Positions 2,944 through 59,972 are shown, numbered from the stretch's first letter. The stretch: DNA of 64,000 bases from an uncultured Gammaproteobacteria bacterium (GCA_965231125.1 OZ246414.1:827239-891238), one strand, 5' to 3'. Program-made: numbers and translations. Notes: generated from the sequence alone by a model not told the origin.

Positions 2944-3018
2944 TGGCAGGCGCGGAGGGAATCGAACCCACGACCTCTGGTTTTGGAGACCAGCGTTCTA
3001 CCACTGAACTACACGCCT
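2944..3018 (-). tRNA. tRNA-Trp (CCA)
   Basis: Reverse complement folds as a cloverleaf with anticodon loop CUCCAAA. Acceptor stem AGGCGTG/CGCGCCT. The 3' CCA is encoded. Confidence 0.8.
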
Positions 3019-3064
3019 ACAATAACCCAAGGATTGGGCACAGGATTCGATAGTATGGAAGATA

Positions 3065-3229
3065 CTATTTTGTTTCTTTGTGTTCAGTCACTTTTTTACA
3101 ATGCTTGCAAAACTTCTTAGTGATAAGTCGATCCGGATCGTTAATCTTACTTTTTTCCGTGACGTAGTTTTGGTTTTTGCAAACGGTACATTGTAATGTA
3201 ACTATAATCCTTTTACCTTTTTTAGCCAT
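3065..3229 (-). CDS. rpmG: 50S ribosomal protein L33 (54 aa; below the ORF-track length cutoff).
   Basis: Reverse-strand translation: [54 protein letters not shown]. This shows the L33 C-x-x-C...C-x-x-C zinc ribbon and sits between tRNA-Trp and a tRNA cluster, as in many bacteria. Confidence 0.8.
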
Positions 3230-3302
3230 AGTTTAAACTCCTTTATCAGTGAGCAGAACAAAGTGCTAATTATTGATATATTAATTTATTCAACAATCTA
3301 TC

Positions 3303-3377
3303 TGGAGCCGACGGTGGGAATTGAACCCACGACCTAACCCTTACCAAGGGTTCGCTCTGCCACTGAGCCACGTCGGC
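3303..3377 (-). tRNA. tRNA-Thr (GGT)
   Basis: Cloverleaf with anticodon loop UUGGUAA, T-arm GGTTCAATTCC, and encoded CCA. Confidence 0.8.
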
Positions 3378-3455
3378 AGGTTGAAACTGTGCTCTTAGCC
3401 CGATTAAATCGGGCGCAGCACGCTTTTAGCGGGCTACCACTGAGCCATCCGGGCA
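3378..3455 (-). other. tRNA-like 5' fragment (acceptor plus D-arm GCCCGGATGGCTCAGTGGTAG) followed by a conserved 33-nt core and a hairpin. It is not a foldable tRNA. It sits where tRNA-Gly would be expected.
   Basis: The D-arm sequence matches tRNA consensus. No matching 3' acceptor strand is present. The core CCCGCTAAAAGCGTGCTGCG is shared with the element at 3683-3775. Confidence 0.4.
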
Positions 3456-3541
3456 TGGTGCCGAGGGTAGGGTTCGAACCTACGTAGCCACAAGGGCGCT
3501 TGTTTTACAGACAAGTGCGTTTGACCACTCCGCCACCTCGG
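3456..3541 (-). tRNA. tRNA-Tyr (GTA), long variable arm
   Basis: Anticodon loop CUGUAAA, long variable arm, acceptor GCCGAGG/CCTCGGC, CCA encoded. Confidence 0.8.
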
Positions 3542-3550
3542 CGTGTTGGA

Positions 3551-3607
3551 CTGGAGCCGATCGTCGGATTCGAACCGACAACCTGCTGTTTAGAGCATGC
3601 CGACTCC
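3551..3607 (-). other. tRNA 3'-half fragment (T-arm GTCGGTTCGAATCCGAC plus acceptor 3' strand plus CCA). No D-arm or 5' acceptor is present.
   Basis: At 57 nt it is too short for a tRNA. It ends in ...GATCGGCTCCA and follows tRNA-Thr(TGT) directly. Confidence 0.4.
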
Positions 3608-3682
3608 GTGGAGCCGAGGAAGGGATTCGAACCCTTAACCTGCGGTTTACAAAACCGCTGCTCTACCGTTGAGCCACCTCGG
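3608..3682 (-). tRNA. tRNA-Thr (TGT)
   Basis: Cloverleaf with anticodon loop UUUGUAA, T-arm GGTTCGAATCC, CCA encoded. Confidence 0.75.
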
Positions 3683-3775
3683 CATGCTGCACCCCAACAA
3701 GTCGGGGCTAAAAACCGCTGCTCTTAGACCACAGGTCGCAGCACGCTTTTAGCGGGCTACCACTGAGCTAAGTCG
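3683..3775 (-). other. Second tRNA-like 5' fragment (GCCGACTTAGCTCAGTGGTAG) carrying the same 33-nt core. It ends in a hairpin plus U-run (CCCCGACTTGTTGGGG) just upstream of tRNA-Thr(TGT).
   Basis: It shares the core ...GGTAGCCCGCTAAAAGCGTGCTGCG...CTAAGAGCA with 3378-3455. The 3' part duplicates the D/anticodon-stem sequence of the adjacent tRNA-Thr (AGAGCAGCGGTTTT). Confidence 0.4.
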
Positions 3776-3870
3776 GCAACTGAATGTTTCCAGCTTACCA
3801 AAACCCAGGCATTATATCAAAAACACTCTAAGGCTTCAAGCTTAGTTTCTTTTATCTACTAACCCCATAG

Positions 3871-3898: not shown

Positions 3899-3995
3899 CT
3901 CCATCTCGTCTGCAGTGGACGAAAGGGCCACGGGACAAGGAGGTGGAACAATGCGCGACATCCACGTTTAGAACTGGACGAAGGGCGAGCGCACC

Positions 3996-4208
3996 ATGCC
4001 CATAACCCCTGAGGGAATGGCCGAAGCCATCGAGTTCTTTCTCGACGACGGCTTCAACCTGGCCATCACCCCCACCGATAAGGGGCAAGCGGGTCCTTGG
4101 ATGCAGATCGGACGCGATCGAGAAAGCGGTCGACTTTCGGTCTTCATCTACACAGCCGGAGGCAATCCCGCAGCAATGGCCTCCATTGAGCTGGTTGATT
4201 CCTCATGA
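3996..4208 (+). CDS. Hypothetical 70-aa protein inside a ~300-bp GC-rich island (~58% GC).
   Basis: ORF in a region of anomalous GC. It is preceded by a strong SD (AAGGAGGT) that serves a 6-codon uORF (MRDIHV*). Coding status is uncertain. Confidence 0.3.
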   Translation: MPITPEGMAEAIEFFLDDGFNLAITPTDKGQAGPWMQIGRDRESGRLSVFIYTAGGNPAAMASIELVDSS

Positions 4209-4277
4209 ATTAACCAGCTCCCAAATCCCCTTTACACTATTCCCCTTCTATGCTAGAATCAGGGCCGTTTAAATTTA

Positions 4278-4484: not shown

Positions 4485-5108
4485 ATGGCTAAAAAAACAA
4501 AAACTTCTGAAAAAGAAAATAAAAAAGAAGAGAAAATTCAAGAACCTGCTGAAGTGGTTAAGGAACCCGCCAAAACGAAACCTTCAAAGGGCCGATGGTA
4601 CGTAGTGCATACGTATGCGGGCCATGAAAATAAGGTAGCGGCGACCCTTAACCAGAAGATAAAGGCTTCCAACCTTGGCGATAAGATTTTTGACGTACTA
4701 GTACCAACCCAAGAAAAAATTGAAATTCGCGAAGGTAAAAAGTACACTATTAAAGAAAAGATCTTTCCAGGCTACATTTTAGTAAATATGGACTTGGACA
4801 ATCTTTCTTGGTATTCTGTCCGCTCTACTGCCGGAGTGACTGGTTTTGTCGGAATTGGCAATAAACCGACTCCTCTTGAAGAAAAAGAAGTCGAAACCAT
4901 TCAGCAGTTTTCTAAGCTGGAAGCGCCCACTTACAAAGCAAGTTTTTCAATTGCTGAAGCGGTAAAAATTATTGATGGGCCTTTTGCCGACTTCATCGGC
5001 TCAGTTGATGAAATAAATGAAGAAAAAGGAAAGATAAAAGTTTTGGTTTCAATTTTTGGTCGAGAAACACCGGTAGAATTAGATTTTTTACAAGTCTCAA
5101 AGTTGTAA
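4485..5108 (+). CDS. nusG: Transcription termination/antitermination factor NusG, with a ~35-aa Lys/Glu-rich N-terminal extension.
   Basis: NGN domain (RWYVVHTYAGHENKV) and C-terminal KOW (GPFADFIGSVDEINEEKGKIKVLVSIFGRETPVELDF). Confidence 0.9.
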   Translation: MAKKTKTSEKENKKEEKIQEPAEVVKEPAKTKPSKGRWYVVHTYAGHENKVAATLNQKIKASNLGDKIFDVLVPTQEKIEIREGKKYTIKEKIFPGYILVNMDLDNLSWYSVRSTAGVTGFVGIGNKPTPLEEKEVETIQQFSKLEAPTYKASFSIAEAVKIIDGPFADFIGSVDEINEEKGKIKVLVSIFGRETPVELDFLQVSKL

Positions 5109-5174
5109 ATGAGAGACTACCGAATTATAATTTCGAGACCAAAAACTAGCTCAAGCGAAGCGGGGCGTCTATTT

Positions 5175-5226
5175 GGTCGAGAAACACCGGTAGAACTAGA
5201 CTTTCTACAGGTATCTAAACTCTAGT
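5175..5226 (+). repeat. Diverged 'ghost' duplicate of the last ~17 codons of nusG (FGRETPVELDFLQVSKL*), 66 bp downstream of the real stop.
   Basis: ttggtcgagaaacaccggtagaaCtagaCttTCtacaGgtAtcTaaaCtCtag versus nusG 5058-5108. The encoded peptide is identical and the differences are synonymous. Confidence 0.7.
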
Positions 5227-5375
5227 CAGTATTTAGTATATGGTATCTAGTATATTGTATCAAGCGATTTATACCAAATACAAAATACCAGATACAAAAT
5301 ACAAAATTTAAGAATGGCTAAAAAAGATAAGCAAAGCTTGCATTTTTGTCCTAGAAATTGTAGAAGGTTAAAACG

Positions 5376-5798
5376 ATGGCCAAAAAAGTAAAAACGTTGA
5401 TTAAACTGAATATTCCTGCTGGTGAGGCTACTCCTGGTCAGCCAATTGGTCCAGCGCTTGGTCAACATGGTTTGCCGATCATGGATTTCGTTAAAGCTTT
5501 CAATGAAAAGACCGCGGACCAAAAAGGTGACGTGTTGCCAGTGGTAATAACCGCCTACGAAGATAGAACTTTCTCTTTTATAACTAAGAAACCACCGGTT
5601 GCCGAATCCATAAAGAAAGCTTTAGGCCTTGAAAAAGGCTCCGGCGTCCCACAAAGGGACAAGGTGGGCAAGATAACAAAAGACCAAGTTAAAAAAATAG
5701 CCGAGAACAAAATGGAAGATTTAAACGCAAAGACTGTGGAAGCCGCAATGAATATCGTTGCCGGAACCGCAAAAAGTATGGGAGTCGACGTAGAATGA
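5376..5798 (+). CDS. rplK: 50S ribosomal protein L11
   Basis: [32 protein letters not shown]... is the canonical L11 N-terminus. Confidence 0.95.
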
Positions 5799-5846
5799 GT
5801 TTATTTTTTGGGGCTCCCAAATTTGTCAAAATTTGGGGTGGAGGTT

Positions 5847-6689
5847 ATGGGTAGACCAAGAATTAAAGTAATTGAAACAGCTCTAGAACCTAAAGCCGCT
5901 GAAAAGCTGGAAGAGAAAAAGCTGGAAATTTCAGAAGAGGCCAACAAAAAAGTTGTTAAACAGGCTAAGGCTGCAAAGAAAAATAAAGAAACAAAACCAA
6001 AGGTTCGAAGTAAGCGTTATGGTACAGCCCATGATTTAATTGACAAAACAAAAGACTACCCTATTAACGAAGCAATAGAGCTCATTAAGAAAACCTCAAC
6101 TGTAAAATTTGATTCAAGCCTTGAAGTGCACATTAATTTAAATGTTGACACTAGTAAATCCGACCAATTGATTAGAAAATCAATCAATTTGCCCTTTGGT
6201 AGCGGTAAAACTATTAGAGTGCTAGTTTTTGGTTTGGACTCTAAACAATCAAAGGATTCGGCAGTAGTGGCCGGAAGTGATAAAACGATAGACGAAATTG
6301 AAAAAGGCAAGGTAGATTTTGATAAAATAGTCTCAACTCCGGATTGGATGCCAAAACTTACTAAGGTGGCTAAAGTGCTCGGTCCAAAAGGCCTGATGCC
6401 AAATCCAAAATCCGGCACTATCACTGAAAACCCAGCTAAACTTTTGGAGGACCTTAAAGGCGGTCTGATCGAAGTGAAAGTTGAAAAAGAACCTATTATT
6501 CACGCAACTACCGGCAAAATTTCCTTACCGGACGAAAAGCTTGCCGAAAATGTAAAAACTCTGGTTTCCGAAATTCAAAAAGCAAAGCCAGAAAGCTTAA
6601 AGAAACCGCTGATCAAATCCGTCTACCTCTCCTCATCGATGGGACCTTCGGTTAAACTAGAAGTCTCCTCTCTTAGTCAAAACCCTTGA
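5847..6689 (+). CDS. rplA: 50S ribosomal protein L1 with a Lys-rich N-terminal extension. Start chosen at the ATG with a GGTGGAGG SD; the ORF is open from 5808.
   Basis: The L1 core (KRYGTAHDLIDKTKDYPINEAIELIKK...VHINLNVD...GKTIRVLVF) begins about 60 residues in. Confidence 0.85.
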   Translation: MGRPRIKVIETALEPKAAEKLEEKKLEISEEANKKVVKQAKAAKKNKETKPKVRSKRYGTAHDLIDKTKDYPINEAIELIKKTSTVKFDSSLEVHINLNVDTSKSDQLIRKSINLPFGSGKTIRVLVFGLDSKQSKDSAVVAGSDKTIDEIEKGKVDFDKIVSTPDWMPKLTKVAKVLGPKGLMPNPKSGTITENPAKLLEDLKGGLIEVKVEKEPIIHATTGKISLPDEKLAENVKTLVSEIQKAKPESLKKPLIKSVYLSSSMGPSVKLEVSSLSQNP

Positions 6690-6875
6690 CAACCTGTAGA
6701 ACTTAATTTATACTCCCCTTCGTACCGAAGACAGCTAGCATTTGCATAAGTCTAGCCGAGGACAGCTTAAGTAAAAAGTATAAAGTTAAAAGTAAAAATT
6801 TTTGACTTTTTCATTTTGAATTTTGACTTAAACAGCCTCGCTTCGGTGGGGTTTTTGCGTTTTAAGGAGTAACTA

Positions 6876-7427
6876 ATGGAAAACGAAGTAAAAAAGTCGC
6901 GAGCGCGAATTAAAAAAGAAGAAACAGTTGCAACTTTGGTTGAAAAGCTAGGGAGGGCAACCAGCATTGTTCTGGCCGATTACCAAGGTCTCTCGGCTTC
7001 TACTCTTTCCGAAGTAAAAAACCAACTTGAAAAAGAGGGAGCGGAGCTAACTGTTGCCAAGAACACTCTTCTATCTCTGGCAACGAAGCAAGCGGGAATA
7101 GAAGTACCCGAGGAGGCCCTGAAAGGCCCAACAGCTGCAGTCTTGGCCTATGATGACCCAATTACACCAATTAAGGATTTGGCCAAGTTTCAAAAGCAGT
7201 ACGAAAAACCTCTGCCAAAGATTGGATTTTTAGGAAGTGAGCTTCTCTCAGTAGAGAAAATTAGAGAGCTCGCCCTCTTGCCAAGCAAACAAGAACTACA
7301 AGCAAAAGTTGTTGGCTCTATTAGCTCCCCTATCTACGGAATTGTCGGGGTGCTCGGGGCGAACTTGAGAAACTTAGTTTATGCCTTGGACCAAATTGCT
7401 AAAAGTAAAGGAAATCCAAATGCTTAA
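6876..7427 (+). CDS. rplJ: 50S ribosomal protein L10
   Basis: L10 family sequence (ADYQGLSASTLSEVKNQLEKEGAELTVAKNTL). It is preceded by a structured leader (6700-6875) with the hairpin gcttcggtggggttttgcg. Confidence 0.9.
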   Translation: MENEVKKSRARIKKEETVATLVEKLGRATSIVLADYQGLSASTLSEVKNQLEKEGAELTVAKNTLLSLATKQAGIEVPEEALKGPTAAVLAYDDPITPIKDLAKFQKQYEKPLPKIGFLGSELLSVEKIRELALLPSKQELQAKVVGSISSPIYGIVGVLGANLRNLVYALDQIAKSKGNPNA

Positions 7428-7459
7428 ATCACATAATTCTGAATTTATATTGAAGGGAG

Positions 7460-8116
7460 GTGCTAGTTAATTTTATGAACGACGACGAAAAGAATCCGTC
7501 AGCTGACGGAGAAGAAAAATCTGAAGGAGCAAGTCAAGAATCTTCTGAATCAAAGCCTGAAAACGAAGAGGTCGAAAAAGAGGTATCCGAAGAGGAAAAG
7601 GCTGAAGAAAAAGCAGTTGAGGAAAAGGCAATAGAAGAGACAAAAGAAACCGAAGTTAAAGAAGAGGAAAAAAAGGAAGAACCTAAAGCCGAACAGCCAA
7701 AATCTGAGGAACCAAAGAAAGAAGTTAAAGTTTCGGGAAAACTCTCTGACATTATCAAAGATATCGAATCTCTATCCGTTTTGGAATTGACCGACCTAGT
7801 TAAAGCTTTGGAACAAAAATTTGGCGTTACTGCGGCTGCTCCTATGGCCGTGGCTGCTCCAACCGGCGGTACCGGGGCTGGCGAAGAAGCCGCTGAAGAA
7901 CAAACCACCTTTAATGTTGTTCTTGCCGAGGCAGGCGCAAATAAAATTGGGGTAATTAAAGCAGTCCGCGAAGTTGTCCCAACTCTTGGTTTGAAAGAAG
8001 CAAAAGACTTGGTAGAGGCAGCCCCCAAACCAGTGGTTGAGGGGGTGAATAAAGAGACAGCCAACGAAGCTAAAAGCAAACTCGAGGCAGCAGGAGCCAA
8101 GGTTGAATTACAGTAA
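7460..8116 (+). CDS. rplL: 50S ribosomal protein L7/L12 with a ~94-aa acidic (EEK-repeat) N-terminal extension
   Basis: Canonical L12 N-terminal domain ([29 protein letters not shown]) and C-terminal domain ([28 protein letters not shown]). The extension is in frame with no alternative start near the canonical N-terminus. Confidence 0.9.
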
Positions 8117-8159
8117 TACTGTTTACGCAGTTGCGTTTCCTTGCGTCGATTTCATCGAC

Positions 8160-8226
8160 TAAAAGAAACCGCCCAGGAAGCAAAGTCTGAATTAGAAGCC
8201 GCAGGTGCGAAAGTTGAATTACAATA
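8160..8226 (+). repeat. Diverged 'ghost' duplicate of the last 21 codons of rplL ([21 protein letters not shown]), 44 bp after the real stop.
   Basis: Compare 8049-8116 ([21 protein letters not shown]) with 8160-8226. Identity is about 75% at the nucleotide level and the reading frame is preserved to a stop. Confidence 0.7.
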
Positions 8227-8229
8227 GAC

Positions 8230-8649
8230 TTACTTAACTACCACAGTCCCGTAGAACTTTAGAGGGTTGAGGTGATCATGGTAGGTAAAGGTACCGGATT
8301 TATTGAAGGTAAAGCTAAATGATTTCCCATTAGTTAGTGGATCACTGAAAAGACCTTTCAGCTTATCGTGGTTTGGATGGGGGTCAGAAGCCACCTGGTG
8401 AGGTAAGCTGTCCGTGTTAGTCCAGACAACTACTGTTCCCTTCTTTACCGCTATGGTAGCCGGAACAAAACCGGCTCGGGTTATTTCTACAGTGGCGCTG
8501 TATAGAACCTTATTTTCTGGACTTTGCGTAGCAACGGTGTTTTCTTTATTTTTCTTCAAATTATTGCCCACCACATAGGCCCCAGCAATTATCACTGCTG
8601 CTACGACAATCGAGACCAGTATAATAATTGTGTTTCGCTTATTAGTCAT
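8230..8649 (-). CDS. Membrane-anchored cupredoxin-fold-like small protein. There is no Cys ligand, so it is probably not a blue-copper protein.
   Basis: N-terminal TM helix, then a beta-rich domain with His-rich motifs (PHQVASDPHPNHD, YHDHLNP) that resembles cupredoxin_1-like domains. Confidence 0.35.
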   Translation of the reverse strand: MTNKRNTIIILVSIVVAAVIIAGAYVVGNNLKKNKENTVATQSPENKVLYSATVEITRAGFVPATIAVKKGTVVVWTNTDSLPHQVASDPHPNHDKLKGLFSDPLTNGKSFSFTFNKSGTFTYHDHLNPLKFYGTVVVK

Positions 8650-21712: not shown

Positions 21713-22105
21713 ATGCACAAAACTCACATAAAAGGACTTTTAGGCGAATTAGAATTCTCCTTGTATCTAATTCAAAAGGGTTGGTCCGTATTAAAACCAA
21801 CCAATCAAAATTCAAGGTATGATGTTGTTTTGGAAAAAGATGGTAAGTTTAAAAGACTTCAAATAAAATATTGTACACCAAACAATGGCGTAATAAGACT
21901 TGAGCTTGACAGGCCAAAAAGAAAAACTAGGCCATACGGAAGTAGTGAAATTGATTATATAGCTGCTTATAATTCTAGAGACCATAAGTTTTATTTAATA
22001 CCAATAAGCCACTTTAGAAAGCAAAAAGAAATTTGGCTAAGGATTGATAAACCCAGGAACGGTCAAAACAAAAATATAAGATTTGCCAGTGACTATGAAA
22101 TTTAA
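21713..22105 (+). CDS. Putative PD-(D/E)XK-fold nuclease-like protein (130 aa).
   Basis: GxxGE...D(YDVVL)...(RLQIK) arrangement, reminiscent of restriction-endonuclease-like / YraN-like folds. This is a weak, motif-only call. Confidence 0.3.
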
Positions 22106-22182
22106 CGGGGAGTGGCGCAGCTTGGTAGCGCGCGTCGTTCGGGACGACGAGGCCGGAGGTTCAAATCCTCTCTCCCCGACCA
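22106..22182 (+). tRNA. tRNA-Pro (CGG)
   Basis: Acceptor CGGGGAG/CTCCCCG. Anticodon loop UUCGGGA. T-arm GGTTCAAATCC. CCA encoded. Confidence 0.8.
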
Positions 22183-35758: not shown

Positions 35759-38700
35759 ATGCCTACCTCTCTGCCCAAAGAGAATAAGTTAGTACCAATT
35801 GGTGAAGCCGCCGATTTCCTTGGTGTTTCAATTGACACCCTGCGTCGCTGGGACCGCTCTGGTAAACTTCACTCGCACCGCCCCGACAGTAAGAACCGTC
35901 ATTTTTATTTTAATGAGCTAGAACAAATAAAGTTCTCCCAACCGTTCTCGATATCAGAGGCCGCAGCCCGCCTTGGCATCTCCCCCACCACTCTAAGAAG
36001 GCTTGAGAAAAAAGGTTTAGTTACACCAGAAAGGAATAAAAACAGTGAAAGGCTCTACTCGCATGAGTCACTAGAAAAGCTAACCAATTCTCCTCAACTT
36101 CTTCGCCACAATCCTCCTGAAGAAAAAATTATAAGACCATTGGAAAACACAGCGGTCTTACTAAGTAAACAACCGTCAAAGTCGAAGATAAAACCAGAAG
36201 CTTTAGTTGACACTATTGTTGAAACACGAGAAAAAGTTTTAGAGAACTGGGAGAGGGTTCTTGAAGAAAAAGAAAAGGTCATAGAACTTGAGGAAAAGGA
36301 ATTCGAAACAAGAAAAAATCTTAATGCTATTAATAGGGCCAAAAGCCGTTTGTTGCGGTCATTGGCATCGATAGTTCTACTTTTAATAATTACTATCTCA
36401 GCTATCACCACTGCTTATCTTATCAGCCCTGAATCCACGGCTAAATTCTTTGGCTATTACAATCCTCGTAGCTTTCAAAATCAGTCTAGTAAGCCCGCAA
36501 CTTCTTTGGTTGGACAGCGCAGTGGAGAGATCTTGGGAATCCACTATCCAACTAATCTGCCTGCAACATCAAACCCGTTGTCTGACTTACTTAAGCCCCT
36601 AAGCAATGTATCTTTGGCTATCGTTTACCTAGTCAACCGTGAAACTTACAACAAAGTAGTTCCTGCGAAAGTACTAGCAGACGTAAATGAAGCCTTTACA
36701 ATTGATGAGGGAGGAAATCTTGCGCCACTTTACACTATCCGACTTCCCGAGAGTAGTTATCTCGAAGTTCCGGATAAAGGGCTCATCAGCAATCTTAACG
36801 CCGATTATTTACGCGGTAAGGTGCCTGGTAATGAAGAGGGTAACCTAGTTATTTTTGGCGAGGGTGGCTCAGTCGCCAATTTGAAAGTAGATGAGACGAA
36901 CCTTAAGAATGGCTCTGTAAAGGGCGGCCCTGGCGGGGTAATTGCTGACAACACAATCACGGCAAATGATCTAGCACCAGGCATTTCTTTAGGAGGTGGT
37001 GGAAGTGGTGATGTAACGGGAGTTATTGCTGGTGACGGCTTAATCGGCGGCGGAAGCTCCGGAAGCGTAACATTGAATATTGAGGTGGGTAACGGATTAC
37101 AAGTTTCGGCTGATCAACTTAATCTCGATGTGAATACAACCGGAACGACTTCAACTACTTTTGCGAATTCTGGACTGGAAACTAGCAGTAATGGTCTGTC
37201 ATTGCTAAAAGGTTGTGCTGATAACCAAATCTTAAAGTGGGACGCTGGGGCAGTCAGATGGCAATGTGAAGCAGATTCAGGTGGAGGCGGCGGAGGAAGT
37301 ATTGATATTGAAGAAGGTGATGCGACGATAACTTCTGGCGCTGGGTTCCTAGATTTTTTGGCGTCTGACTTTAATGTATCAGACTCGCCTGCTGGCGAGG
37401 CTAATGTCTCTATTGATTATGCAAATAGCGATATAACAAGAAACGACGTGGCCGAAACGATTACTGGAGGTTGGACTTTTAACACAATCCCAACTACCTT
37501 CACTACCGCCATCGATGTTAACTCCGCTTCAACAATCGCTGGGTTAACAGTTGACGGGTCCGGTACATTCACAGCGAACAATGCCGCTACTTTCCTTGGG
37601 AATATTACTGCTAATGACGCTTCGGCGGATACGATACTTATTGGTCAAAACGGTGCCACCGATGACACGGTCACCATCGCTGGCAATATCTCTCTGACTG
37701 ATGATCAGTGGTCTATTTCAGCAACTGGGGTAGCTAGTGGTCTATCCGGAACAAATACTAGTTTAACAGCTGGGGACCTTTCCTGCGCAAATTGTATTGG
37801 TGGTACTGAGATTGATGAATCTACTTTTGGCGCTCTAACTGCCACTTCGCTAACTTCCACTGGGACTCTAGATGTTTCAGGTGTAGCTACCTTTACTGGA
37901 AATATAACGGCAAACGACGCTTCGGCGGATACTATTTTGATTGGGCAATCAGGAGCTACAGACGATACAGTCACGATTGCCGGCAACATTTCCCTTACTG
38001 ATGACCAATGGTCCATTTCGGCTACTGGCGCGGCAAGTGGGCTTTCAGGCACTAACACTGGACTAACTGCTGGTGATCTTTCCTGTACTAATTGTATTGG
38101 CCCAACTGAAATATCCGATTTAACACTAACCGCTGATACTACTGGTGATTATGTGGCCACTATCACTGCTGGTGGCGGACTGACAGGTGATGCAAGCGGT
38201 GAAGGGTCAACACCAACTTTGGCGGTAGGTACTGGCTCTGGAATTACTGTCAATGCCGACGATGTGGCAGTAAACCAGAACTTCTCCTTTGCCTGGACAG
38301 CCGATCATACTTGGACGTTAGCTGGCGCCGAAGATTTGGCTATCAGTCATGACGGTACTGGCGGGGCGGTTGATATTGTGAACATTTCGGCTACTCCCTC
38401 CTCAAGCGCTGGGGCTATGAATGGTCTAGTTATCACTCAAGCTAATTCGGCGAACACTAATCCCCTTGATGCTGGGTTGCGGATCAACAATGCTGATACT
38501 AATCTAGCTATACCAGCGGCAATTCAGATAGCTAACACAGGCGGTGGTGGCTACACTACCATTATAGATAATGCGGGTACTTTGATTTCTGGTACCGAAC
38601 TTAATGTCCTGGACTCTGGAATTGATGAGTCTGAAGTAACCGGTGATATTGAAGCTGTAACAGCCGGTTCAGGACTAACTGGAGGCGGAGCCGCTGACTC

Positions 38701-41700
38701 AGTCACCCTAAATATTGGAGCCGGAGACGGTATTACTGTTAATGCTGACTCCATACAAGTAAGACTGGATACTACTGCCGCTGATGGAGCAACTACTTCC
38801 TCTGTCTCTGGTATGGAGTTTGTGGGTGGAGAACTATCTCTGATCCGGGGCTGTGCTGCCGGCGGCATCCTTGAATGGGATAATGTCGCCTTTGAGTGGG
38901 ATTGTGGTGTTGATGATACTGGAGGAGGTGGGGCTAATAGTTTCGAAACCATCAATGCCCCAGCTGGGACTGACCCAGTGGCTGACTCTGCTACTGACAC
39001 CCTTAACCTGACCGTGACTGAGGCTAACTTAACCATTACTGGTAACTCTGGAACAGATACTCTTGACTTTGATATATCCGAGGCTACCCTAGCCGGAGCA
39101 GGACTCGCCGCCAACGGTGATGCACTGGACGTAGGGGCTGGAGACGGGATTAGCGTGGCCGCCGACTCGGTAGCTGTAAGGCTAGATACTACTGCAGCCG
39201 ATGGGGCGACTACTTCATCGGTCTCTGGTATGGAGTTTGCGGGAGGTGAATTATCTTTAATTAGAGGCTGTGCCGCTGGTGGAATACTGGAATGGGATAA
39301 CGTAGCCTTTGAGTGGGACTGTGGGGTAGATGACACTGGCGGTGGTGGGGCGAACTCCTTCGAGACCATCAACGCTCCAGCTGGGACTGACCCGGTCGCC
39401 GATTCCGCTACTGACACTCTTAACCTGACCGTGACTGGGGCTAACCTGACCATTACCGGAACTGCGGGTACTGATACCCTTGACTTTGATATATCCGAGG
39501 CAACTCTTGCCGGGGCAGGCCTCACCGCCAACGGGGACGCCCTGGACGTGGGTGCCGGGACCGGAATAACCGTTAACGCTAATGACGTGGCCGTCAACAC
39601 TGGGGCGGCCTTTGCCTGGACTGGTCTCCACTCCTGGACTAACACTCTCACTAATGATAGTAGTAGTCAGGATATTAACCTTACTCTTGGTGCCGACGCG
39701 GATGCCGATATCATTTCCGGCCTTAATATTGACGTCACTTCCGCCGCGACGGGAGACGCCGATCTGCTTTACGGGATAAATATAGGGAACGTGACCTCTG
39801 CTGATGGGACGGTTGTGGAGACTGCCCTGCGTATTGGTGAAGACTGGGAGAACGCGGTGGAAGTAGAAGGGTCAACTAACGACGCCGTCGAGACTTACCT
39901 GGTCTTTACGGATCCGACGGTTTCCGATAAAACGATTACCTTCCCTAACGAGACCGGCACGGTTTGTACCACGGGTAGTGTCTGTTCTGGTTACCAAGCC
40001 TCAGGCTCTTTTGTGCCTACCACGCGAACCTTGACCGCCGGTGACGGACTTTCCGGTGGCGGCGATCTCTCCGCCGACCGTTCCTTTGCGGTTAACACTG
40101 CTTCGGGTATAACCACCTCGGCTGACAACGTGGTTCTGGACCTTACTTACGCGGCCGCCTGGACTGGTCTCCACTCCTGGACTAACACTCTCACTAATGA
40201 TAGTAGTAGTCAGGATATTAACCTTACTCTTGGTGCCGACGCGGATGCCGATATCATTTCCGGCCTTAATATTGACGTCACTTCCGCCGCGACGGGAGAC
40301 GCCGATCTGCTTTACGGGATAAATATAGGGAACGTGACCTCTGCTGATGGGACGGTTGTGGAGACTGCCCTGCGTATTGGTGAAGACTGGGAGAACGCGG
40401 TGGAAGTAGAAGGGTCAACTAACGACGCCGTCGAGACTTACCTGGTCTTTACGGATCCGACGGTTTCCGATAAAACGATTACCATACCCAACCGCTCTGG
40501 TACAGTCTCCCTCTCTGGAGATACCTTTACGGGAGACGTGACTGGTACCTTAAATAGTAGTGGAGCCACTGCTTTAACTGTCGCTAGTGACGCTGTTGCT
40601 CTAACGACTGATACTACTGGTGATTATGTATCCTCAGCTACTGCAAGCGGTGGGCTTACTCTAACTGGCACCGAAGGTGCATCACTAGGTATTGACCTGT
40701 CTAGTGGAGACGGTGCTGGTGGCACATCCAGCGGTTCAGGCCTAGAATTAGACGCCAACGGAGTCGGACTACTACAAGGTTGTGGTATTAACGAGATTCT
40801 TAAATGGAATGATGGTGCTTCCACTTGGGGTTGTGCCACGGATGTCTCCGGTGGTACTCCTTCCCTAGATACTATCAGTGCCGCACTCGCCAATGGAAGT
40901 GCTCAAGATTCTAATGCTTTTACCATTAACTGGAACTGGGATTTTCAAGCTGCCGCCGTTGACTCCGGTCTTAATATCTCGGAATCATCAAATTCGACGC
41001 TCGGCACCCAAGACCAACAGGCCCTGGTTGAGATAACAACCCTTGCCAACTCCACTGCCTCACCTTTGCAAGTCACCGCTGGCGGGACTGCTGCCGGTGA
41101 TGTCTGGTTCGATTTAAGCGGCACTTCAGATTTTGAAATCCGCGATGCTGGGACCGCATTTGCCATTTTCAAAAATGATTCGACTACTGACTGGGTTTTA
41201 CCAGCTGCTGGTGACATTGCGATTGACGCGGCGACGACCGACACCACCACCACCGCTGGCGTTTTGGATCTTAACATTGACGCTGGTAACGCTGCTGTTG
41301 ATGGTATCAATATTGACATGGAAGCCGCGGGTGCTATTACTGCGGGTACTGACATTACAGCTTTGGAAATTCTCCTAACCGCAACTGACACCGATGCTGA
41401 TCTATTTGGTATTACCATAGACACTCATGCTACGGCAGGTATTGCTAGTTCATATGATGCTGGCATTAAGATTAACAATCAAGATGACACCGGCGGATCC
41501 ATGCTAGATGGAATTATTATTACAGCCAATACCGATACCGCTATCACCGACGGTCTTGATGTATCGGATGCGGAAATTGTGAATGCTATTAACATTGGTG
41601 GAAATGCCATTGCCGGAACAAACTTTGCTGTCAGTGCTGCTGGCGCCATCACCGCCGCGACAGGCATCACCTCCTCTGGAACAATCACACTTTCCGGTCT

Positions 41701-43504
41701 TGTCAGCTGTGCTGGAATAAAGACGGACGGCTCTGGTGTCTTGAGTTGTAATGCTGCGGTACCAAAATCCCTGGCTGGTACTTGGACCGAAGTTAATACC
41801 GCTGCTAGCCAAACCGATGGAAATATGGATCGAGTCGTGTCTTCCATCCTTCCTGCTGGCGCCAGTCAGGTTAACTCGATCAGGATGCCGTTTGCTGGTT
41901 CTGTCCGGGGTATTTCGGTATCCCTTTCGGCTGCCAGAAGTGCTGACACATTGACTGTTACTGCTTTCGTAAACGGTGCAAGTGTAGGTTTCACCTGCTT
42001 GATTGACGGAACTAACACTCAACGCAACCAGTGCTCTCAAGCTACCGGGCTTGATACCTTTGTTGCCGGTGATACCCTTGAGGCAAAATATAGCACTGGC
42101 GCAAGCTTTGCACCGACTACAGCAGAAATCGAGGTCGAGCTGTGGGTTGACTGGTCAGGAGCAGATGTCGCCGAGATGTACCAGACGAACGATTTTAGCG
42201 TAGAAGCCGGCCACCTAGTCAGCATTGATCCCCAAATCGCTGTCGGAGTCAAGAAGAGCGAGGGAGCGTATGACAAAAATATCGTTGGCGTGATCTCCAC
42301 CGCCGCCGGCTTGACATTAAACGAAGGACTTAATAGTCCAGGCAATGAGGTAAAAGTGGCTTTGGCAGGCCAGGCGCCGGTTTATGTGACCACCGAGAAC
42401 GGGCCTATTAGCGCGGGCGACTACATTACCTCCTCCTCCATCCCGGGAATTGCCATGAAGGCCACCAAAGCAGGGCCCGTAGTCGGTAGGGCCATGACTA
42501 ACTTTGATGGCGATAGAGTGGGTTGGGTGGTTGTCTTTGTCAGCCCCGGGTACTATAACGGTACAAATTTGGCCGGTCTTTTGCCTGATTTAACTACCGA
42601 ATCTAGCTCGCCCGAAAGTTCGACAAGCTCACCACAAGATTTTGGTAAGCAAATCCTAGGTCAACTGCTTACTCAGAAAGATCAACTTACTACTTCAGTC
42701 AATTTCTCGGAAATATTCACTGACCGTCTTGCTGCTGGTCTTGAGATTATTACTCCAAAAATTACCGCCGAAGAGCTGGCGCTTACTGGTAAATTTACCA
42801 TGGTAGATGAAACTGGAAAAGAGACGGTTAGTGTTGACTCCGCCGGCAACGCCTTCTTTGCCGGCACCATTACGGCGGATAAGATTAAAGCAAACCAAAT
42901 TGAAGGTCTGGAAATTATAACTGATAAAATAACCAGCCTTTCGGATAAGTTAGCCAAAATTAGCAGTGCACCTAGTGAAGTGCTACCTTCGGGAGAGGCA
43001 ACCGAAAGCGCATCTAGTATAACGGCTGTAAGTGCCGATAATTCACAAGATCTGGGTAATATAAATGTAGAGTCTGCTAAGGTGGCTCTAGATATGTCTG
43101 TCTTGGGCAATCTGGAGGCTCAAGGAGGATTAGTTGTTGGTGGCCCAGCGGAGTTTAAAGGTGAGTCAGTATTTGAGAAGCTGGCCACATTTGTCGGCAA
43201 CGTAATCTTCCGCGGTGACGTCCAGTTTCTGGGACGGCCAACCTTTAATAAAGACACAGCCGGAACTGCAGTGGTAAAGGCTGGTGATACAGAAGTTGAA
43301 GTCCAATTTGAGCGGGAGTATGAAAACCCACCAGTCGTTACTGCCAGCTTAAACCTATCAGAGGATACCGCAAGTCAAGTACTTACCAGTGCACCCTCTT
43401 ATGGAGTAATATCGGCAACAACTAAAGGATTCAAAATACGTCTTGCTGCTGCGGCGACAAGTGACCTGCAGTTTTCTTGGATGGCAATCTCTGTAAAGCA
43501 GTGA
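35759..43504 (+). CDS. Giant (2581 aa) membrane protein. It has two N-terminal cytoplasmic MerR/excisionase-type HTH domains, a charged coiled region, one TM helix and a >2300-aa Gly/Thr/Asp/Ala-rich repetitive extracellular region. It ends in a conserved C-terminal domain.
   Basis: HTH1 IGEAADFLGVSIDTLRRWDRSGKL. HTH2 ISEAAARLGISPTTLRRLEKKGLV...ERLYSHESL. TM LLRSLASIVLLLIITISAITTAYLI. Recurrent GC..G.ILKW...W.C..D.GGGG motifs. Internal tandem repeats. Confidence 0.8.
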   Translation: MPTSLPKENKLVPIGEAADFLGVSIDTLRRWDRSGKLHSHRPDSKNRHFYFNELEQIKFSQPFSISEAAARLGISPTTLRRLEKKGLVTPERNKNSERLYSHESLEKLTNSPQLLRHNPPEEKIIRPLENTAVLLSKQPSKSKIKPEALVDTIVETREKVLENWERVLEEKEKVIELEEKEFETRKNLNAINRAKSRLLRSLASIVLLLIITISAITTAYLISPESTAKFFGYYNPRSFQNQSSKPATSLVGQRSGEILGIHYPTNLPATSNPLSDLLKPLSNVSLAIVYLVNRETYNKVVPAKVLADVNEAFTIDEGGNLAPLYTIRLPESSYLEVPDKGLISNLNADYLRGKVPGNEEGNLVIFGEGGSVANLKVDETNLKNGSVKGGPGGVIADNTITANDLAPGISLGGGGSGDVTGVIAGDGLIGGGSSGSVTLNIEVGNGLQVSADQLNLDVNTTGTTSTTFANSGLETSSNGLSLLKGCADNQILKWDAGAVRWQCEADSGGGGGGSIDIEEGDATITSGAGFLDFLASDFNVSDSPAGEANVSIDYANSDITRNDVAETITGGWTFNTIPTTFTTAIDVNSASTIAGLTVDGSGTFTANNAATFLGNITANDASADTILIGQNGATDDTVTIAGNISLTDDQWSISATGVASGLSGTNTSLTAGDLSCANCIGGTEIDESTFGALTATSLTSTGTLDVSGVATFTGNITANDASADTILIGQSGATDDTVTIAGNISLTDDQWSISATGAASGLSGTNTGLTAGDLSCTNCIGPTEISDLTLTADTTGDYVATITAGGGLTGDASGEGSTPTLAVGTGSGITVNADDVAVNQNFSFAWTADHTWTLAGAEDLAISHDGTGGAVDIVNISATPSSSAGAMNGLVITQANSANTNPLDAGLRINNADTNLAIPAAIQIANTGGGGYTTIIDNAGTLISGTELNVLDSGIDESEVTGDIEAVTAGSGLTGGGAADSVTLNIGAGDGITVNADSIQVRLDTTAADGATTSSVSGMEFVGGELSLIRGCAAGGILEWDNVAFEWDCGVDDTGGGGANSFETINAPAGTDPVADSATDTLNLTVTEANLTITGNSGTDTLDFDISEATLAGAGLAANGDALDVGAGDGISVAADSVAVRLDTTAADGATTSSVSGMEFAGGELSLIRGCAAGGILEWDNVAFEWDCGVDDTGGGGANSFETINAPAGTDPVADSATDTLNLTVTGANLTITGTAGTDTLDFDISEATLAGAGLTANGDALDVGAGTGITVNANDVAVNTGAAFAWTGLHSWTNTLTNDSSSQDINLTLGADADADIISGLNIDVTSAATGDADLLYGINIGNVTSADGTVVETALRIGEDWENAVEVEGSTNDAVETYLVFTDPTVSDKTITFPNETGTVCTTGSVCSGYQASGSFVPTTRTLTAGDGLSGGGDLSADRSFAVNTASGITTSADNVVLDLTYAAAWTGLHSWTNTLTNDSSSQDINLTLGADADADIISGLNIDVTSAATGDADLLYGINIGNVTSADGTVVETALRIGEDWENAVEVEGSTNDAVETYLVFTDPTVSDKTITIPNRSGTVSLSGDTFTGDVTGTLNSSGATALTVASDAVALTTDTTGDYVSSATASGGLTLTGTEGASLGIDLSSGDGAGGTSSGSGLELDANGVGLLQGCGINEILKWNDGASTWGCATDVSGGTPSLDTISAALANGSAQDSNAFTINWNWDFQAAAVDSGLNISESSNSTLGTQDQQALVEITTLANSTASPLQVTAGGTAAGDVWFDLSGTSDFEIRDAGTAFAIFKNDSTTDWVLPAAGDIAIDAATTDTTTTAGVLDLNIDAGNAAVDGINIDMEAAGAITAGTDITALEILLTATDTDADLFGITIDTHATAGIASSYDAGIKINNQDDTGGSMLDGIIITANTDTAITDGLDVSDAEIVNAINIGGNAIAGTNFAVSAAGAITAATGITSSGTITLSGLVSCAGIKTDGSGVLSCNAAVPKSLAGTWTEVNTAASQTDGNMDRVVSSILPAGASQVNSIRMPFAGSVRGISVSLSAARSADTLTVTAFVNGASVGFTCLIDGTNTQRNQCSQATGLDTFVAGDTLEAKYSTGASFAPTTAEIEVELWVDWSGADVAEMYQTNDFSVEAGHLVSIDPQIAVGVKKSEGAYDKNIVGVISTAAGLTLNEGLNSPGNEVKVALAGQAPVYVTTENGPISAGDYITSSSIPGIAMKATKAGPVVGRAMTNFDGDRVGWVVVFVSPGYYNGTNLAGLLPDLTTESSSPESSTSSPQDFGKQILGQLLTQKDQLTTSVNFSEIFTDRLAAGLEIITPKITAEELALTGKFTMVDETGKETVSVDSAGNAFFAGTITADKIKANQIEGLEIITDKITSLSDKLAKISSAPSEVLPSGEATESASSITAVSADNSQDLGNINVESAKVALDMSVLGNLEAQGGLVVGGPAEFKGESVFEKLATFVGNVIFRGDVQFLGRPTFNKDTAGTAVVKAGDTEVEVQFEREYENPPVVTASLNLSEDTASQVLTSAPSYGVISATTKGFKIRLAAAATSDLQFSWMAISVKQ
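39614..40495 (+). repeat. Exact ~339-bp direct repeat (39614-39952 and 40157-40495) inside giant gene 1, alongside older diverged tandem repeats (37598-38110; 38716-39555).
   Basis: The two copies read identically base for base (gcctggactggtctccactcctggactaacactctcactaatgatagtagtagtcagg ... aaaacgattacc). Confidence 0.75.
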
Positions 43505-50367: not shown

Positions 50368-53300
50368 ATGGGAACCGAAAATAGTCTAAAAGCCGAATCT
50401 TTACCAAAGGCGGAAGAGAACCAAAAACTTTTACCATATCCCGAAGTCATAAAGCTTGCTAAACAAGCTGGTGTTGATTTTGGGAAAGGCTACCCCTACA
50501 ATAGGCTGCGCTACTACACAAAGATAGGTTTGCTACCCAAAGCCCACCGCCGCTCTTTCGGAGGTCCAGCTGAAGGATGCTACCCATCTTGGGTTGTTGA
50601 CAAATTAATTGAAATCGACAGGCAGCTTAAACAAGGCCAATCAGTCCAATCAATCCTTAGACAAAAGTCGAGTACACCATCATTAACCAATGCTTTATCG
50701 CCCGCTCCCATCTCTTTATACGAAAACCGAAAAATAGCTAACCAAGAGGATTTCGCCCAGTCTACAGATTTCGGGATTGGTGAGCAGTCGACCTACACTG
50801 AAAGTTCAGCAGGTGCTCTCGACTTCATCAGACGTGGAGCTTTATATCTTGGTTTGATGTCAATAATTTTCGTCTCTGGACTCGCAACTGTTTACGAAAT
50901 GCCGCAGAGTCATGACAATGTTCAAAGCCTAGTGAACATTGCAAAAAATAAGTTTTTTGGAACTTATTCACCGAAAAATCTGATCGCTCTCCCAAACCAA
51001 ATCGGAAGTGTGCTGGGACGCACCACCGCCCCTTATTTCAAAGTAAACGTTCCGACCGAAATTACCCATCTGCTCAGTGCCTTTGGTGGAATCAAAACAA
51101 ACGGCGCCAATGCGAATTTAGGGAAAGGTAAACTAACCGCCTCAAACGTTATTTACGATGTCCTTCCTGGCACTAATGTCAGCATCTCTTCTGGTCAAAA
51201 GCCGACCATTTCCGTTTCTGGACTAATCGGATCGGTAAATGGAACTGCCGGAAGAATTACTTCTTCGGGTGGGGACAATCCAACAATTGATATTGCCAGC
51301 AACTATACTGGCCAGACTTCAATCGATACTGTCGGAACAATAGGGAGCGGCGTGTGGCACGGATCCCCCCTTACCGATCCTTATGTTTCCAACAACATTA
51401 CTGTTTCAAACTATTTGCCCCTCTCCGGAGGAACTTTAACCGGTTCTTTGACCTTAAACAACAATGATGGTGGTAGCGGCGATGTTAACTTAATCCTTGG
51501 AGATTCCAACGAATCGGGAGACATAGTTCTTAATAACAGTGGCTTTACTGGCGCTATAACTTCTGGAGCGCTAACTGCGGCAAGAGTCTGGACTCTACCA
51601 AACGAGACCGGCACCATTTGCACCACTACAAGCGGTTGTGGAGCCGCTGGAGTTTTATTCGATATCGCTGCTGATGCTGGTGCAAATCAAAGCGTTACCG
51701 CCGGAGACACCGTTACTCTTACCGGTGGGGCGGGAATCAGTACTTCGGTTGCTGCTGGACCGACGGCAACTTTTGATGTAAATACTGGTAACGGGGTTCA
51801 GATATCGGCAGATGCGGTTGCTTTAGGTCCGTTGACAGCCGATTGGGACCAAACTGGAGCCTTCAATATCTACCTAGACAACGCGGGCAGCAACCTACAG
51901 ATCAGAGAAAACGGTGGCGGAGCCGACAAAGGCATTTTTGATGTTGCCTCGATTGCTGGCGACCAAACTTACACTTTTACAACCGGCGGCACAGTTTGGA
52001 CTTCCGGAAATGATGGCTCCGGTTCTACCTTAGATGCTGATACTCTTGATTCATTGGATTCTTCTCAATTTCTTAGGTCGGATACTTCGGACAGCTTCAC
52101 CTCCGGAACCTTAACCTTTGACAATGGGACTACTCTAACAGTAAATGGGGTCGCCAATATTGGGGATGGTGGGGATGCGGTTGCAATTTCTGGCACGACA
52201 GTCTCGGTAACCGCCAATGGGGCCGGTAATGATATAACTTTGAATTTGGTTGACAACAACACCGATGCCCTAGACATTAAACAGGGCGCTGATAACTATA
52301 TCAATATAAATACTACCAATACAACAGAAAATATCTCGTTCGGTAACGCTGCCACTAACCCCACCTACTCTTTTCTGGGAAGTGGTACAGCTACTTTCTC
52401 TGGAGCAACTACAGTCACTGGTACCCTAACCGCTAACGGCTCCTTTGTAGCCAACAACACCTTCACCTTAGGAGATGGTGGGGACACTGGATCAATCAAC
52501 ACTTCGGATTGGGCCGTGTCAACAACTGGAGACATGACTGGGATTGGAAGTATTGGGGCTGACGGGGATATAACCACTTCCCAAGCGACCCCGTCTGTCT
52601 TTTTGACGGACACAACCGCGGCTTCGGATGATTATTCAATTAACGCTGACGCTAGTACTTTTACCATCCGTAACGAGACAGATGCCAGGGACGATGTCAG
52701 CATTGATGGGTCTGGAAATGTAACTCTAAATTCGGTGGGATCCTTTGGAAACGGCACCTGGTCTTTCTCTTCGGCTGGAGCACTTTCCGGTGTAACCACC
52801 ATCTCAACTTCTTCAACGATAACTTTAGGCGCTCTTGGGGCGACGGATACCACCACTTTGCTTTGTCGTAACTCTGGAAATGTGATTGCCGGTTGTAACA
52901 GCGGTTCTGGTTCTGGACAGGATGCGGATCTTTTGGACGGTCTAGATTCTTCACAATTCCTAAGAAGTGACACTTCGGATAACTTTACCTCTGGTACTTT
53001 AACTACAGATGCTGGAACCACCTTGGCAGTTGCCGGAGATTTAACCATTGCTGATAATAATATTCCTCTGACTGGTGGAGACACTACGATTGACTTGAAC
53101 GCGGCGGCTACGAGAACTTTAACTATTACTAACTCAAATGGCGCGAATGTTGCTAACTTATCTGTCGAAGGCACTGCCACAGCTGCCGATTTCTCCTGTA
53201 GCGATTGTATCGCTTTAACGACTGAAACCTCCGGTGACTATGTTGCCAATGTCGACACGAGTGTATTAACAGGACTAACTGGAGGTTCGGCAGGTTCGGA

Positions 53301-59896: not shown

Positions 59897-59972
59897 GGGC
59901 CCATGGCTCAATTGGTAGAGCGCTTCCATGGCATGGAAGAGGTTGCCGGTTCAAGTCCGGCTGGGTCCACCA
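59897..59972 (+). tRNA. tRNA-Ala (GGC)
   Basis: Acceptor GGGCCCA/TGGGTCC (G3:U70 present). Anticodon loop AUGGCAU. T-arm GGTTCAAGTCC. CCA encoded. Confidence 0.7.

Follow-up and report, generated by a model that had tools for sequence, protein, structure and literature searches.

Ghost 3′ ends behind nusG, rplL and three tRNA genes in the genome of an uncultured bacterium

The question raised by this locus is how the 3′ end of a strongly conserved gene comes to stand a second time, in frame, just behind the gene itself. The DNA analysed was a stretch of 64,000 nucleotides (nt) from an uncultured Gammaproteobacteria bacterium (GCA_965231125.1 OZ246414.1:827239-891238), referred to below as the window; the genomes closest to it were Patescibacteria of the Microgenomates/Woykebacteria type. 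Its plus strand carries the run secE, nusG, rplK, rplA, rplJ, and rplL, and both nusG and rplL are followed by another copy of their own 3′ end, here called a ghost. A preliminary description of the window had reported both as in-frame duplications, which was confirmed, the coordinates being right to within a few bases. With moderate confidence, we regard the ghosts as non-functional 3′ ends that were displaced when short segments of diverged alleles were inserted, in an integrase-type or a homology-facilitated event.

Ghosts at protein and tRNA genes

The live nusG gene (4485-5108, plus strand, 207 amino acids) was recognized from the list of open reading frames (ORFs), from a Pfam NusG/KOW match on an identical contig and from its homologues. 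Its last 17 codons and stop (5055-5108) were copied at 5172-5225 on the same strand, at an offset of 117 nt, with 87% identity over 47 nt (self-BLAST E = 7e-9). The live tail and the ghost translate alike, into FGRETPVELDFLQVSKL followed by a stop codon. The offset is divisible by 3 and the sole intervening stop is that of nusG itself, so that the ghost lies in frame with the gene; it closes a 38-codon ORF (5109-5225) whose ATG follows immediately after the nusG TAA, and the peptide that would mark its translation is MRDYRIIISRPKTSSSEAGRLFGRETPVELDFLQVSKL. All nine substitutions in sense codons (T/C, T/C, T/C, A/G, C/A, A/T, G/A, T/C, and G/C) are synonymous and the ghost ends in TAG, in agreement with the preliminary description, which had noted both the purely synonymous differences and the stop.

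These differences are distributed very unevenly. No substitution was found in the first eight codons of the tail (24 nt), whereas eight of the remaining nine codons differ, a split whose probability by chance was calculated by hand as C(9,8)/C(17,8) = 9/24310 = 3.7e-4. The left 24-nt block TTTGGTCGAGAAACACCGGTAGAA (5055-5078, plus strand) is identical to 5172-5195 and thus forms the left member of a flanking direct repeat. The identical block on both sides together with the diverged ends indicates a 117-nt insert bounded by a perfect direct repeat. The presumed inserted segment (5079-5171, plus strand) comprises the live last nine codons with TAA (5079-5108) and a spacer of 63 nt (5109-5171), and the order along the DNA is the 24-nt block, the new nine codons with TAA and the 63 nt, the same block again, and the other nine codons with TAG.

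Comparison with relatives indicated which of the two ends is the older resident. In 11 of 16 relatives, the last nine codons of nusG resemble those of the ghost more closely than the live ones, and the ghost is at least as near as the live end in every near relative, with a tie (22/22) in L082; the live codons beat those of the ghost only against L004 and L006, both of which are distant. Because its codons are nearer to those of close relatives, the nusG ghost is probably the former native end, and the live end would have come from outside. A scan of a metagenome collection with the 24-mer returned only two contigs, each with a single-copy nusG of an unrelated bacterium, and a scan of viral contigs gave no match; no donor or element was identified. 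The 24-mer is thus apparently rare, yet shareable between distant alleles, and it could be used as an anchor for recombination. At 5131-5145, the spacer also carries part of the tail's start in inverted orientation (p ~0.01). Two further candidates were discarded, namely a third partial tail copy (5342-5357), which was not significant, and a 5′ ghost of rplK (ATGGCTAAAAAAG, 5314-5326), which is too short in view of the common MAKK start that is found in nusG as well. A template and variable repeat pair of a diversity-generating retroelement was likewise rejected, since the mismatches are not adenine-specific and no reverse transcriptase is present at the nusG locus.

The rplL gene (7460-8116, plus strand, with its start at 7460 or 7475) was recognized from the ORF list, the Pfam family Ribosomal_L12 and its homologues. 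Here the last 21 codons and stop (8051-8116) were copied at 8162-8227 on the plus strand, at an offset of 111 nt. This offset is again divisible by 3, the only intervening stop is that of rplL, and the ghost, ending in TAG, is in frame with the gene. The copies share 72% of their nucleotides and 19 of 21 amino acids, the 18 substitutions including two amino-acid changes (N→Q and K→E). A spacer of 45 nt (8117-8161, plus strand) separates the rplL stop from the ghost, and an imperfect hairpin of 8135-8150 with 8154-8169 spans the ghost junction. The site of the K→E change is K in 119 of 120 rplL homologues, and a replacement at such a nearly invariant position suggests that constraint on the ghost is relaxed and that it is decaying. 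The rplL ghost may thus be a similar but older relic. It adjoins the stop codon of a convergent cupredoxin gene (8230-8649), and gene order breaks right behind rplL: the window continues with the ghost and the cupredoxin gene, whereas most relatives have a non-coding gap and then a small HTH_17 gene.

The ghosts are present in the organism and fixed, and they were not made by an assembler. A contig from Logan was 100% identical over 7,370 nt and contained both ghosts, and a contig from JGI, derived from another sample and representing a distinct strain, differed over 9,429 nt by 13 single-nucleotide polymorphisms, all of which lie outside the ghosts and spacers. The source samples are SRR6155503 and IMG 3300010391. 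An assembly artefact is excluded by this agreement of the NCBI, Logan, and JGI assemblies, which cover two strains. In a protein-level scan of all ORFs of at least 60-80 amino acids in the window, tail ghosts were found only at nusG and rplL, and no head ghosts were found. Self-alignment of the window for tail duplications, as proposed at the outset, gave significant copies, and chance similarity as their source was rejected on the basis of the self-BLAST and the protein-level scan.

Partial duplicates of tRNA genes had also been noted in the window, and these proved to be 3′ halves at three tRNA genes together with two 5′ fragments. The genes for tRNA-Thr(tgt), tRNA-Ala(ggc), and tRNA-Ala(cgc) are each directly trailed by the 3′ half of a diverged tRNA with a compensated T-stem and a CCA end. 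The first of them belongs to a minus-strand cluster before secE (tRNA-Trp, rpmG, tRNA-Thr(ggt), tRNA-Tyr, and tRNA-Thr(tgt)). On the 3′ side of the live tRNA-Thr(tgt) gene (3609-3683), remnants occupy 3543-3608 on the minus strand and consist of AGTCGGCA and a 3′ half with T-arm and CCA. The element AGTCGGCA corresponds to the 3′ strand of an acceptor stem and matches a 5′ fragment of tRNA-Thr(tgt) that lies upstream of the live gene (3684-3783, minus strand, GCCGACTTAGCTCAGTGGTAG ... AGAGCAGCGGTTTT). This fragment is typical of the clade, and its D-loop is broken by an insert of ~30 nt. Over 41 nt, the ghost 3′ half shares 92.7% identity with tRNA-Thr(tgt) from L004, and its T-arm (GTCGG/CCGAC) and anticodon stem match those of L004, L101, and L092, from which the live gene differs. 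Indeed, the live gene has an acceptor stem, an anticodon stem and a T-arm different from those of the pieces that flank it. Since the fragments are clade-typical while the intact gene is atypical, the fragments probably represent the native gene and the working copy the newcomer.

Both tRNA-Ala genes are followed by a ghost on the plus strand. A 3′ half with the T-arm AGGGG/CCCCT and a CCA end (59985-60018) starts 13 nt after tRNA-Ala(ggc) (59897-59972), and a second 3′ half (60255-60292) starts 11 nt after the live tRNA-Ala(cgc) (60168-60243). In the latter, the first 21 nt are identical to the live gene (21/21 between 60205-60225 and 60255-60275) and the remainder has diverged. The insert amounts to 50 nt, counted between the starts of the two copies (60205 and 60255), and is bounded by the 21-nt repeat, which is the same topology as at nusG.

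The insert in the D-loop of the 5′ tRNA-Thr(tgt) fragment was observed once more in the window. A second 5′ tRNA-like fragment upstream of tRNA-Thr(ggt) (3378-3455, minus strand) contains this insert too; the block that holds it matches 3734-3768 at 97% identity over 35 nt. Two different tRNA-like fragments (acceptors GCCCGGA... and GCCGACT...) thus carry one insert at one D-loop position. The insert block GCTCAGTGGTAGCCCGCTAAAAGCGTGCTGCG is identical at 32/32 nt between the fragments at 3378-3455 and 3684-3783, and behind it stands a second hairpin, in which the two copies differ in sequence but have kept the pairing. Among all fetched loci, the GCTCAGTGGTAGCCCGCTAAAAGCGTGCTGCG block was found in this species only. 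The insert may represent a structured RNA or else a small element directed at tRNA D-loops. A free-standing PD-(D/E)XK endonuclease of 130 amino acids is encoded elsewhere in the window at 21713-22102 (plus strand), 3 nt before tRNA-Pro(cgg) (22106-22182). It matched Pfam PDDEXK_5 (E = 2e-26) and PDB 2OST (E = 7e-8), the latter of which we take to be I-Ssp6803I, the homing endonuclease of a tRNA intron.

Origin of the ghosts

The divergence between the copies was assessed by simulating an in-place duplicate whose ghost drifts neutrally and counting amino-acid changes. If all differences had arisen in the ghost, so few amino-acid changes would be expected with P < 1e-5, and if only half of them had arisen there neutrally, with P = 0.004 for nusG and P = 0.001 for rplL. 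These values imply that each pair consists of alleles that diverged as working genes, unless the ghost was under coding-like selection. The suggestion of the preliminary description that the copies are remnants of a second, diverged but functional allele beside the live end is borne out by this codon-preserving divergence and by the compensated T-stems of the tRNA ghosts.

In the displacement that we favour, a short piece of DNA carrying the 3′ end of a diverged allele and a few dozen flanking bases would be inserted at the 3′ end of a conserved gene. The gene would then end in one copy, and the other copy would be stranded just downstream. A simple homologous crossover resolved inside the gene, as had been proposed, would duplicate nothing; the duplication of a gene end requires a topology with an insertion (of Campbell or att type) or with one illegitimate junction. 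Two routes may be considered, namely site-specific (integrase, att-type) or Campbell-type single-crossover integration with later loss of the element body, and uptake of DNA from a related organism, with a short identical block as the anchor and one illegitimate joint. The topology of the first is favoured because identical blocks flank the inserts at nusG and tRNA-Ala(cgc).

The nusG ghost was found in none of the approximately 20 relatives that were examined for it, as the proposed check of sister genomes had asked. Their NusG proteins are 55-91% identical to that of the window, and even in the closest (91%) synonymous sites are saturated. The distance between nusG and rplK is 1-80 nt in L002-L005, L007, L008, L082-L088, L092, L093, and L101, none of which has a ghost. 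Insertions at this junction nevertheless occur elsewhere: L006 carries a gene for a four-helix-bundle protein of 119 amino acids (5801-6160), and L102 (1327-2256) and L104 (924-1841) carry a gene for a beta-lactamase or beta-lactamase-fold protein. The L006 protein is of a type associated with intervening sequences of rRNA, and its gene is flanked by ATGAGAGATGAGT-like repeats. A comparable ghost was seen in L073, an unrelated member of the Actinomycetota, where 51 codons of an EF-Tu C-terminus from a diverged allele lie ~30 nt after the tuf stop (643-840). In L056, another unrelated member of the Actinomycetota, a second, diverged copy of most of secE was observed right behind secE (5329-5590). 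BLAST searches with the spacers, the palindrome described below and a GC-rich ORF against all fetched loci gave no homologues. A match to the rplL tail downstream of rplL in L004 was dismissed as chance, since it lies inside a real convergent gene of 393 amino acids.

Several observations weigh against displacement. No recombinase was found between or beside the repeats: the inserts of 50-117 nt contain no such ORF, and ten neighbouring ORFs were searched against Pfam. An integrase origin would therefore require that the element body was lost independently from every site. Between the rplL copies there is no identical core, the longest shared run being 11 nt, and in 11 of 12 comparisons with relatives the live rplL end is nearer than the ghost, so that the direction of displacement is not assigned at rplL. 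Among the genomes compared, none was near enough to supply an empty site with the exact sequence before insertion, the nearest NusG being 91% identical. If the ghosts are displaced ends, the in-frame, stop-free arrangement of both of them and the ATG-started ORF that joins the nusG ghost to the nusG stop are coincidences. Finally, an element behind rplL in two relatives, L092 and L003, is conserved far above the level of synonymous sites, which hints at selection on at least this relative of the rplL ghost.

This last observation bears on the possibility that the ghosts were kept for a function, either as cis-acting RNA (in the rplK leader and in the 3′ untranslated region (UTR) of rplL) or as small translated peptides. 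In L092 (10318-10425) and L003 (9721-9830), a common, non-coding element of ~110 nt directly follows rplL and ends in an rplL-end ghost, AKVELQ and a stop codon, at a stop distance near that of the end of the ghost in the window. The part of the element upstream of it has no significant likeness to rplL tails, so that this ghost comprises the last seven codons only. The two elements are ~70% identical, as against 31% at the third codon positions of rplL, synonymous sites being saturated between the two lineages, and their AKVELQ ghosts differ at four positions, all of them third codon positions. Three compensated pairs connect the end of rplL with the bases that follow, in a hairpin made up of the last rplL codons and these bases, and a GAAA-loop motif (AAAGGCGAAAGCU) is present. 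Conservation above that of the rplL third positions means that the element either is under selection or is younger than the two host lineages. In L092, a second rplL-end fragment, KEAANESKGK, has a hairpin before it, much as in the window. No match to the element was found in Rfam, and a covariance model built from it detected no copy in the window (11.9 bits). Neither was a ghost found after rplL in L005, L093, L095, L101, and L104, and in four of these an ordinary terminator follows the gene. Near the HTH_17 gene of L101 (9292-9460, minus strand), a weak match to the GAAA-loop motif was noticed.

For the window itself, a retained function would account for ghosts that are both in frame and open, with an ATG right after the nusG TAA, and for substitutions that are all or nearly all synonymous. 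The 267-nt spacer between nusG and rplK folds better than shuffled sequences (z = -3.6). Within it, 5131-5143 can pair with 5172-5184, the inverted copy fitting either direct copy, and a further pairing is possible between 5358-5369, by the rplK start and ribosome-binding site, and 5199-5210 in the second half of the ghost. Moreover, a promoter-like TTGTAA-17-TATAAT (5103-5131, 10/12 matches), which overlaps the nusG stop, would place the ghost in the 5′ UTR of rplK, the predicted start of transcription being at about 5138. However, most of the fold signal comes from an A+T-rich imperfect palindrome just past the ghost (5229-5302, plus strand, 35-nt arms that are 80% complementary, z = -4.6) and not from the ghost, and the region of the rplL ghost folds no better than shuffled sequences on either strand (z = -0.9). 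Neither ghost ORF has a Shine-Dalgarno sequence, and that of rplL has only a TTG start. No Rfam match was obtained at either ghost at the gathering or a permissive threshold (E ≤ 5), the K→E change at a site that is K in nearly all homologues speaks against L12-like selection, and the nusG ghost and its long spacer are confined to the window among the relatives examined. The preliminary description had left room for a retained function; the window lends this weak support and the L092/L003 element its best support, and we keep it as a minority possibility that is unlikely for the ghosts studied here.

A related proposal, which we consider decidedly doubtful, is that the live ends and their spacers form units that are self-healing miniature insertions, targeting the 3′ ends of the most conserved genes in these bacteria with reduced genomes and in at least some cases kept by selection. 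Unit lengths would be 117 nt (nusG), 111 nt (rplL), and ~105 nt (L092 and L003). If this were true, each insertion would carry in a surrogate gene end, rplKA would receive a promoter and a structured leader from the nusG unit, and the rplL unit would be a conserved 3′-UTR element whose hairpin includes the last codons of the gene itself.

The preliminary description had placed the ghosts at the edges of one replaced block. In its explicit form, a single event would have replaced rplK-rplA-rplJ-rplL by a donor fragment reaching from the nusG tail to 45 nt past rplL, with both joins illegitimate, so that the nusG ghost would be donor DNA and the rplL ghost the old end of the recipient. It is attractive that the ghosts bracket 5172-8161, that one event would explain both, that gene order breaks at the rplL ghost and that this ghost looks older and decaying. 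Yet the nusG ghost lies between nusG and rplK with a 24-nt repeat of its own, and a ghost of donor origin should not share a perfect 24 nt and then differ in eight of nine codons; it is also the ghost, and not the live end, that has the codon choices of close relatives. Per-gene identities to 12 relatives showed no discordance between nusG and rplK-rplL: the same group of relatives, that of L083, was nearest for nusG and for each of rplK, rplA, rplJ, and rplL, although the resolution of this comparison is coarse, and secE ranked the relatives differently from the nusG-rplL genes. Local events are moreover sufficient, as the similar, self-contained ghosts of the three tRNA genes show. Replacement of the whole block seems improbable.

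In-place tandem duplication across the stop codon, by slippage or unequal crossing-over and with subsequent drift of the second copy, is very improbable. In its favour, each ghost is a direct copy that stands in frame and at a short distance (117 and 111 nt), and small duplications spanning a stop would be harmless and could persist. Drift, however, predicts mostly non-synonymous changes and was rejected by the simulation (P ≤ 0.004 and 0.001). In addition, no copy of the spacer follows the ghost, a perfect 24-nt block beside a synonymously saturated 27-nt block is incompatible with uniform decay, and the tRNA ghosts hold compensated stems of another allele. Hardly credible is the joining in tandem of reads from two co-occurring strains, for although the sequence comes from a metagenome-assembled genome and the differences between the copies are such as strains or species might show, the same sequence stands in the NCBI contig of 915 kb, the Logan contig and the JGI contig of the second strain, and the spacers are unique sequence with no homology to the part of the gene upstream of the tail.

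Other features of the window

Further features were observed around the ghosts and in the rest of the window. The tRNA-Thr/Tyr/Thr-rpmG-tRNA-Trp cluster (2944-3783) is inverted relative to secE-nusG, likewise in L101, and is co-oriented with secE-nusG in most relatives (compared were L002-L005, L092, and L093). Between this cluster and secE, an island with ~58-60% G+C (3900-4210) is embedded in a genome with 44% G+C. It contains an ORF of 70 amino acids (3996-4208) without a Pfam match, and its position is taken by a two-component system in several relatives.

The only relevant Rfam match, which is unrelated to the ghosts, lies upstream of rplJ, where 6707-6822 matched the L10 leader (RF00557) with 37.9 bits against a gathering threshold of 44 (E = 0.0012); the leader is probably genuine despite this score. 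A promoter-like TTGACA-17-TATACT (6686-6714) overlaps the rplA stop, and a terminator-like hairpin lies at 6834-6853. In close relatives, a genuine diversity-generating retroelement is present between rplA and rplJ (L083:3225-6126 and L084:3948-6843). It encodes a reverse transcriptase of 360 amino acids, its template repeat in L083 (4709-4817) is 82% identical to the variable repeat (5329-5437), and the variable repeat is placed at the 3′ end of a gene of 281 amino acids. The HTH_17/MerR-type gene of 66-70 amino acids, which follows rplL after a few hundred non-coding bases and is absent from this position in the window, was seen in L092, L093, L095-L098, L100, L101, L102, L104, L003, and L005. 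Farther away, two giant ORFs (35759-43504, 2,581 amino acids, and 50368-57495, 2,375 amino acids) contain long internal DNA repeats, such as 39605-39949 with 40151-40492 (98% identical) and 38717-39152 with 39134-39568 (81% identical).

Significance and comparison with known systems

Five stranded ends were counted in 64 kb of a genome of ~0.9 Mb, at nusG, rplL, tRNA-Thr, and two tRNA-Ala genes, all of which belong to the most conserved genes. This suggests that conserved blocks may serve these bacteria as landing sites for DNA of related organisms and that core genes of translation and transcription can have their ends exchanged. If the same held genome-wide, ghosts would allow such events to be counted in uncultivated lineages by a simple feature of the sequence, and they would call for caution in gene calling and in phylogenies based on single genes. 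The finding fits known mechanisms, and no new function was shown.

One close likeness is to the duplications at att sites (attL/attR), partial gene copies with which elements encoding an integrase mark the 3′ ends of tRNA, tmRNA, and protein genes. Williams is said to have set out, in 2002, sublocation rules for the integration sites within tRNA genes. As in such duplications, an intact gene is followed by a second 3′ copy with an identical core, here of 24 nt at nusG and 21 nt at tRNA-Ala, and the rest of the copies differs, one of them having presumably come with the incoming DNA. The tRNA ghosts run from the region between anticodon stem and variable loop to the CCA, and at tRNA-Thr(tgt) and nusG the native end appears to be displaced distally, the ghost being the clade-typical copy. 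In contrast to att elements, the inserts of 50-117 nt hold no integrase or element body, two of the targets, nusG and rplL, encode essential proteins, and an identical core is missing at rplL. Partial tRNAs are known to flank and outlast integrative elements, for example the tycheposon islands of Prochlorococcus (10.1101/2020.12.28.424599).

A second likeness is to homology-facilitated illegitimate recombination in natural transformation (de Vries and Wackernagel, 2002; Prudhomme et al., 2002; Meier and Wackernagel, 2003; as cited in PMC5361080), and Patescibacteria have been shown to be naturally transformable (PMC10633639). In this process, a conserved anchor is used, the other end is joined without homology and DNA of a related organism is trapped beside a conserved gene; here too, one copy would have come from a diverged functional allele. 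In its classical form, however, it replaces or deletes DNA of the recipient and leaves the anchor unduplicated, whereas the insert at nusG and at tRNA-Ala(cgc) is flanked by the anchor-like block on either side.

Strings of orphaned 3′ regions also occur in the effector loci of Rhs, contact-dependent inhibition (CDI) and type VI secretion systems (T6SS) (Jackson et al., 2009, via PMC5361080), and PMC5361080 attributes them to homology-facilitated illegitimate recombination. In these loci, an incoming 3′ module takes over the gene end and the old end is orphaned downstream together with a conserved piece, and the two successive rplL-end fragments of L092 resemble such strings. The Rhs, CDI, and T6SS loci carry variable toxin domains and immunity genes under diversifying selection, whereas the ghosts of the window encode the same or nearly the same peptide and bring no cargo.

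Finally, free-standing endonuclease genes are able to spread by intron-less homing. Insertion of a mobile endonuclease with a surrogate C-terminus was reportedly described by Paquin and colleagues in 1994 for atp6 in mitochondria of Allomyces. The resemblance lies in a foreign gene end that is fused in frame while the native end persists downstream as a pseudo-fragment, and the window does encode a free-standing I-Ssp6803I-like PD-(D/E)XK endonuclease by tRNA-Pro; the difference lies in the lack of an endonuclease ORF at or near the nusG and rplL ghosts. By analogy with these systems, the scars of the window would be of a known type, familiar from integrative elements at tRNA genes and from the displacement of C-termini, but situated here at unusually conserved genes.

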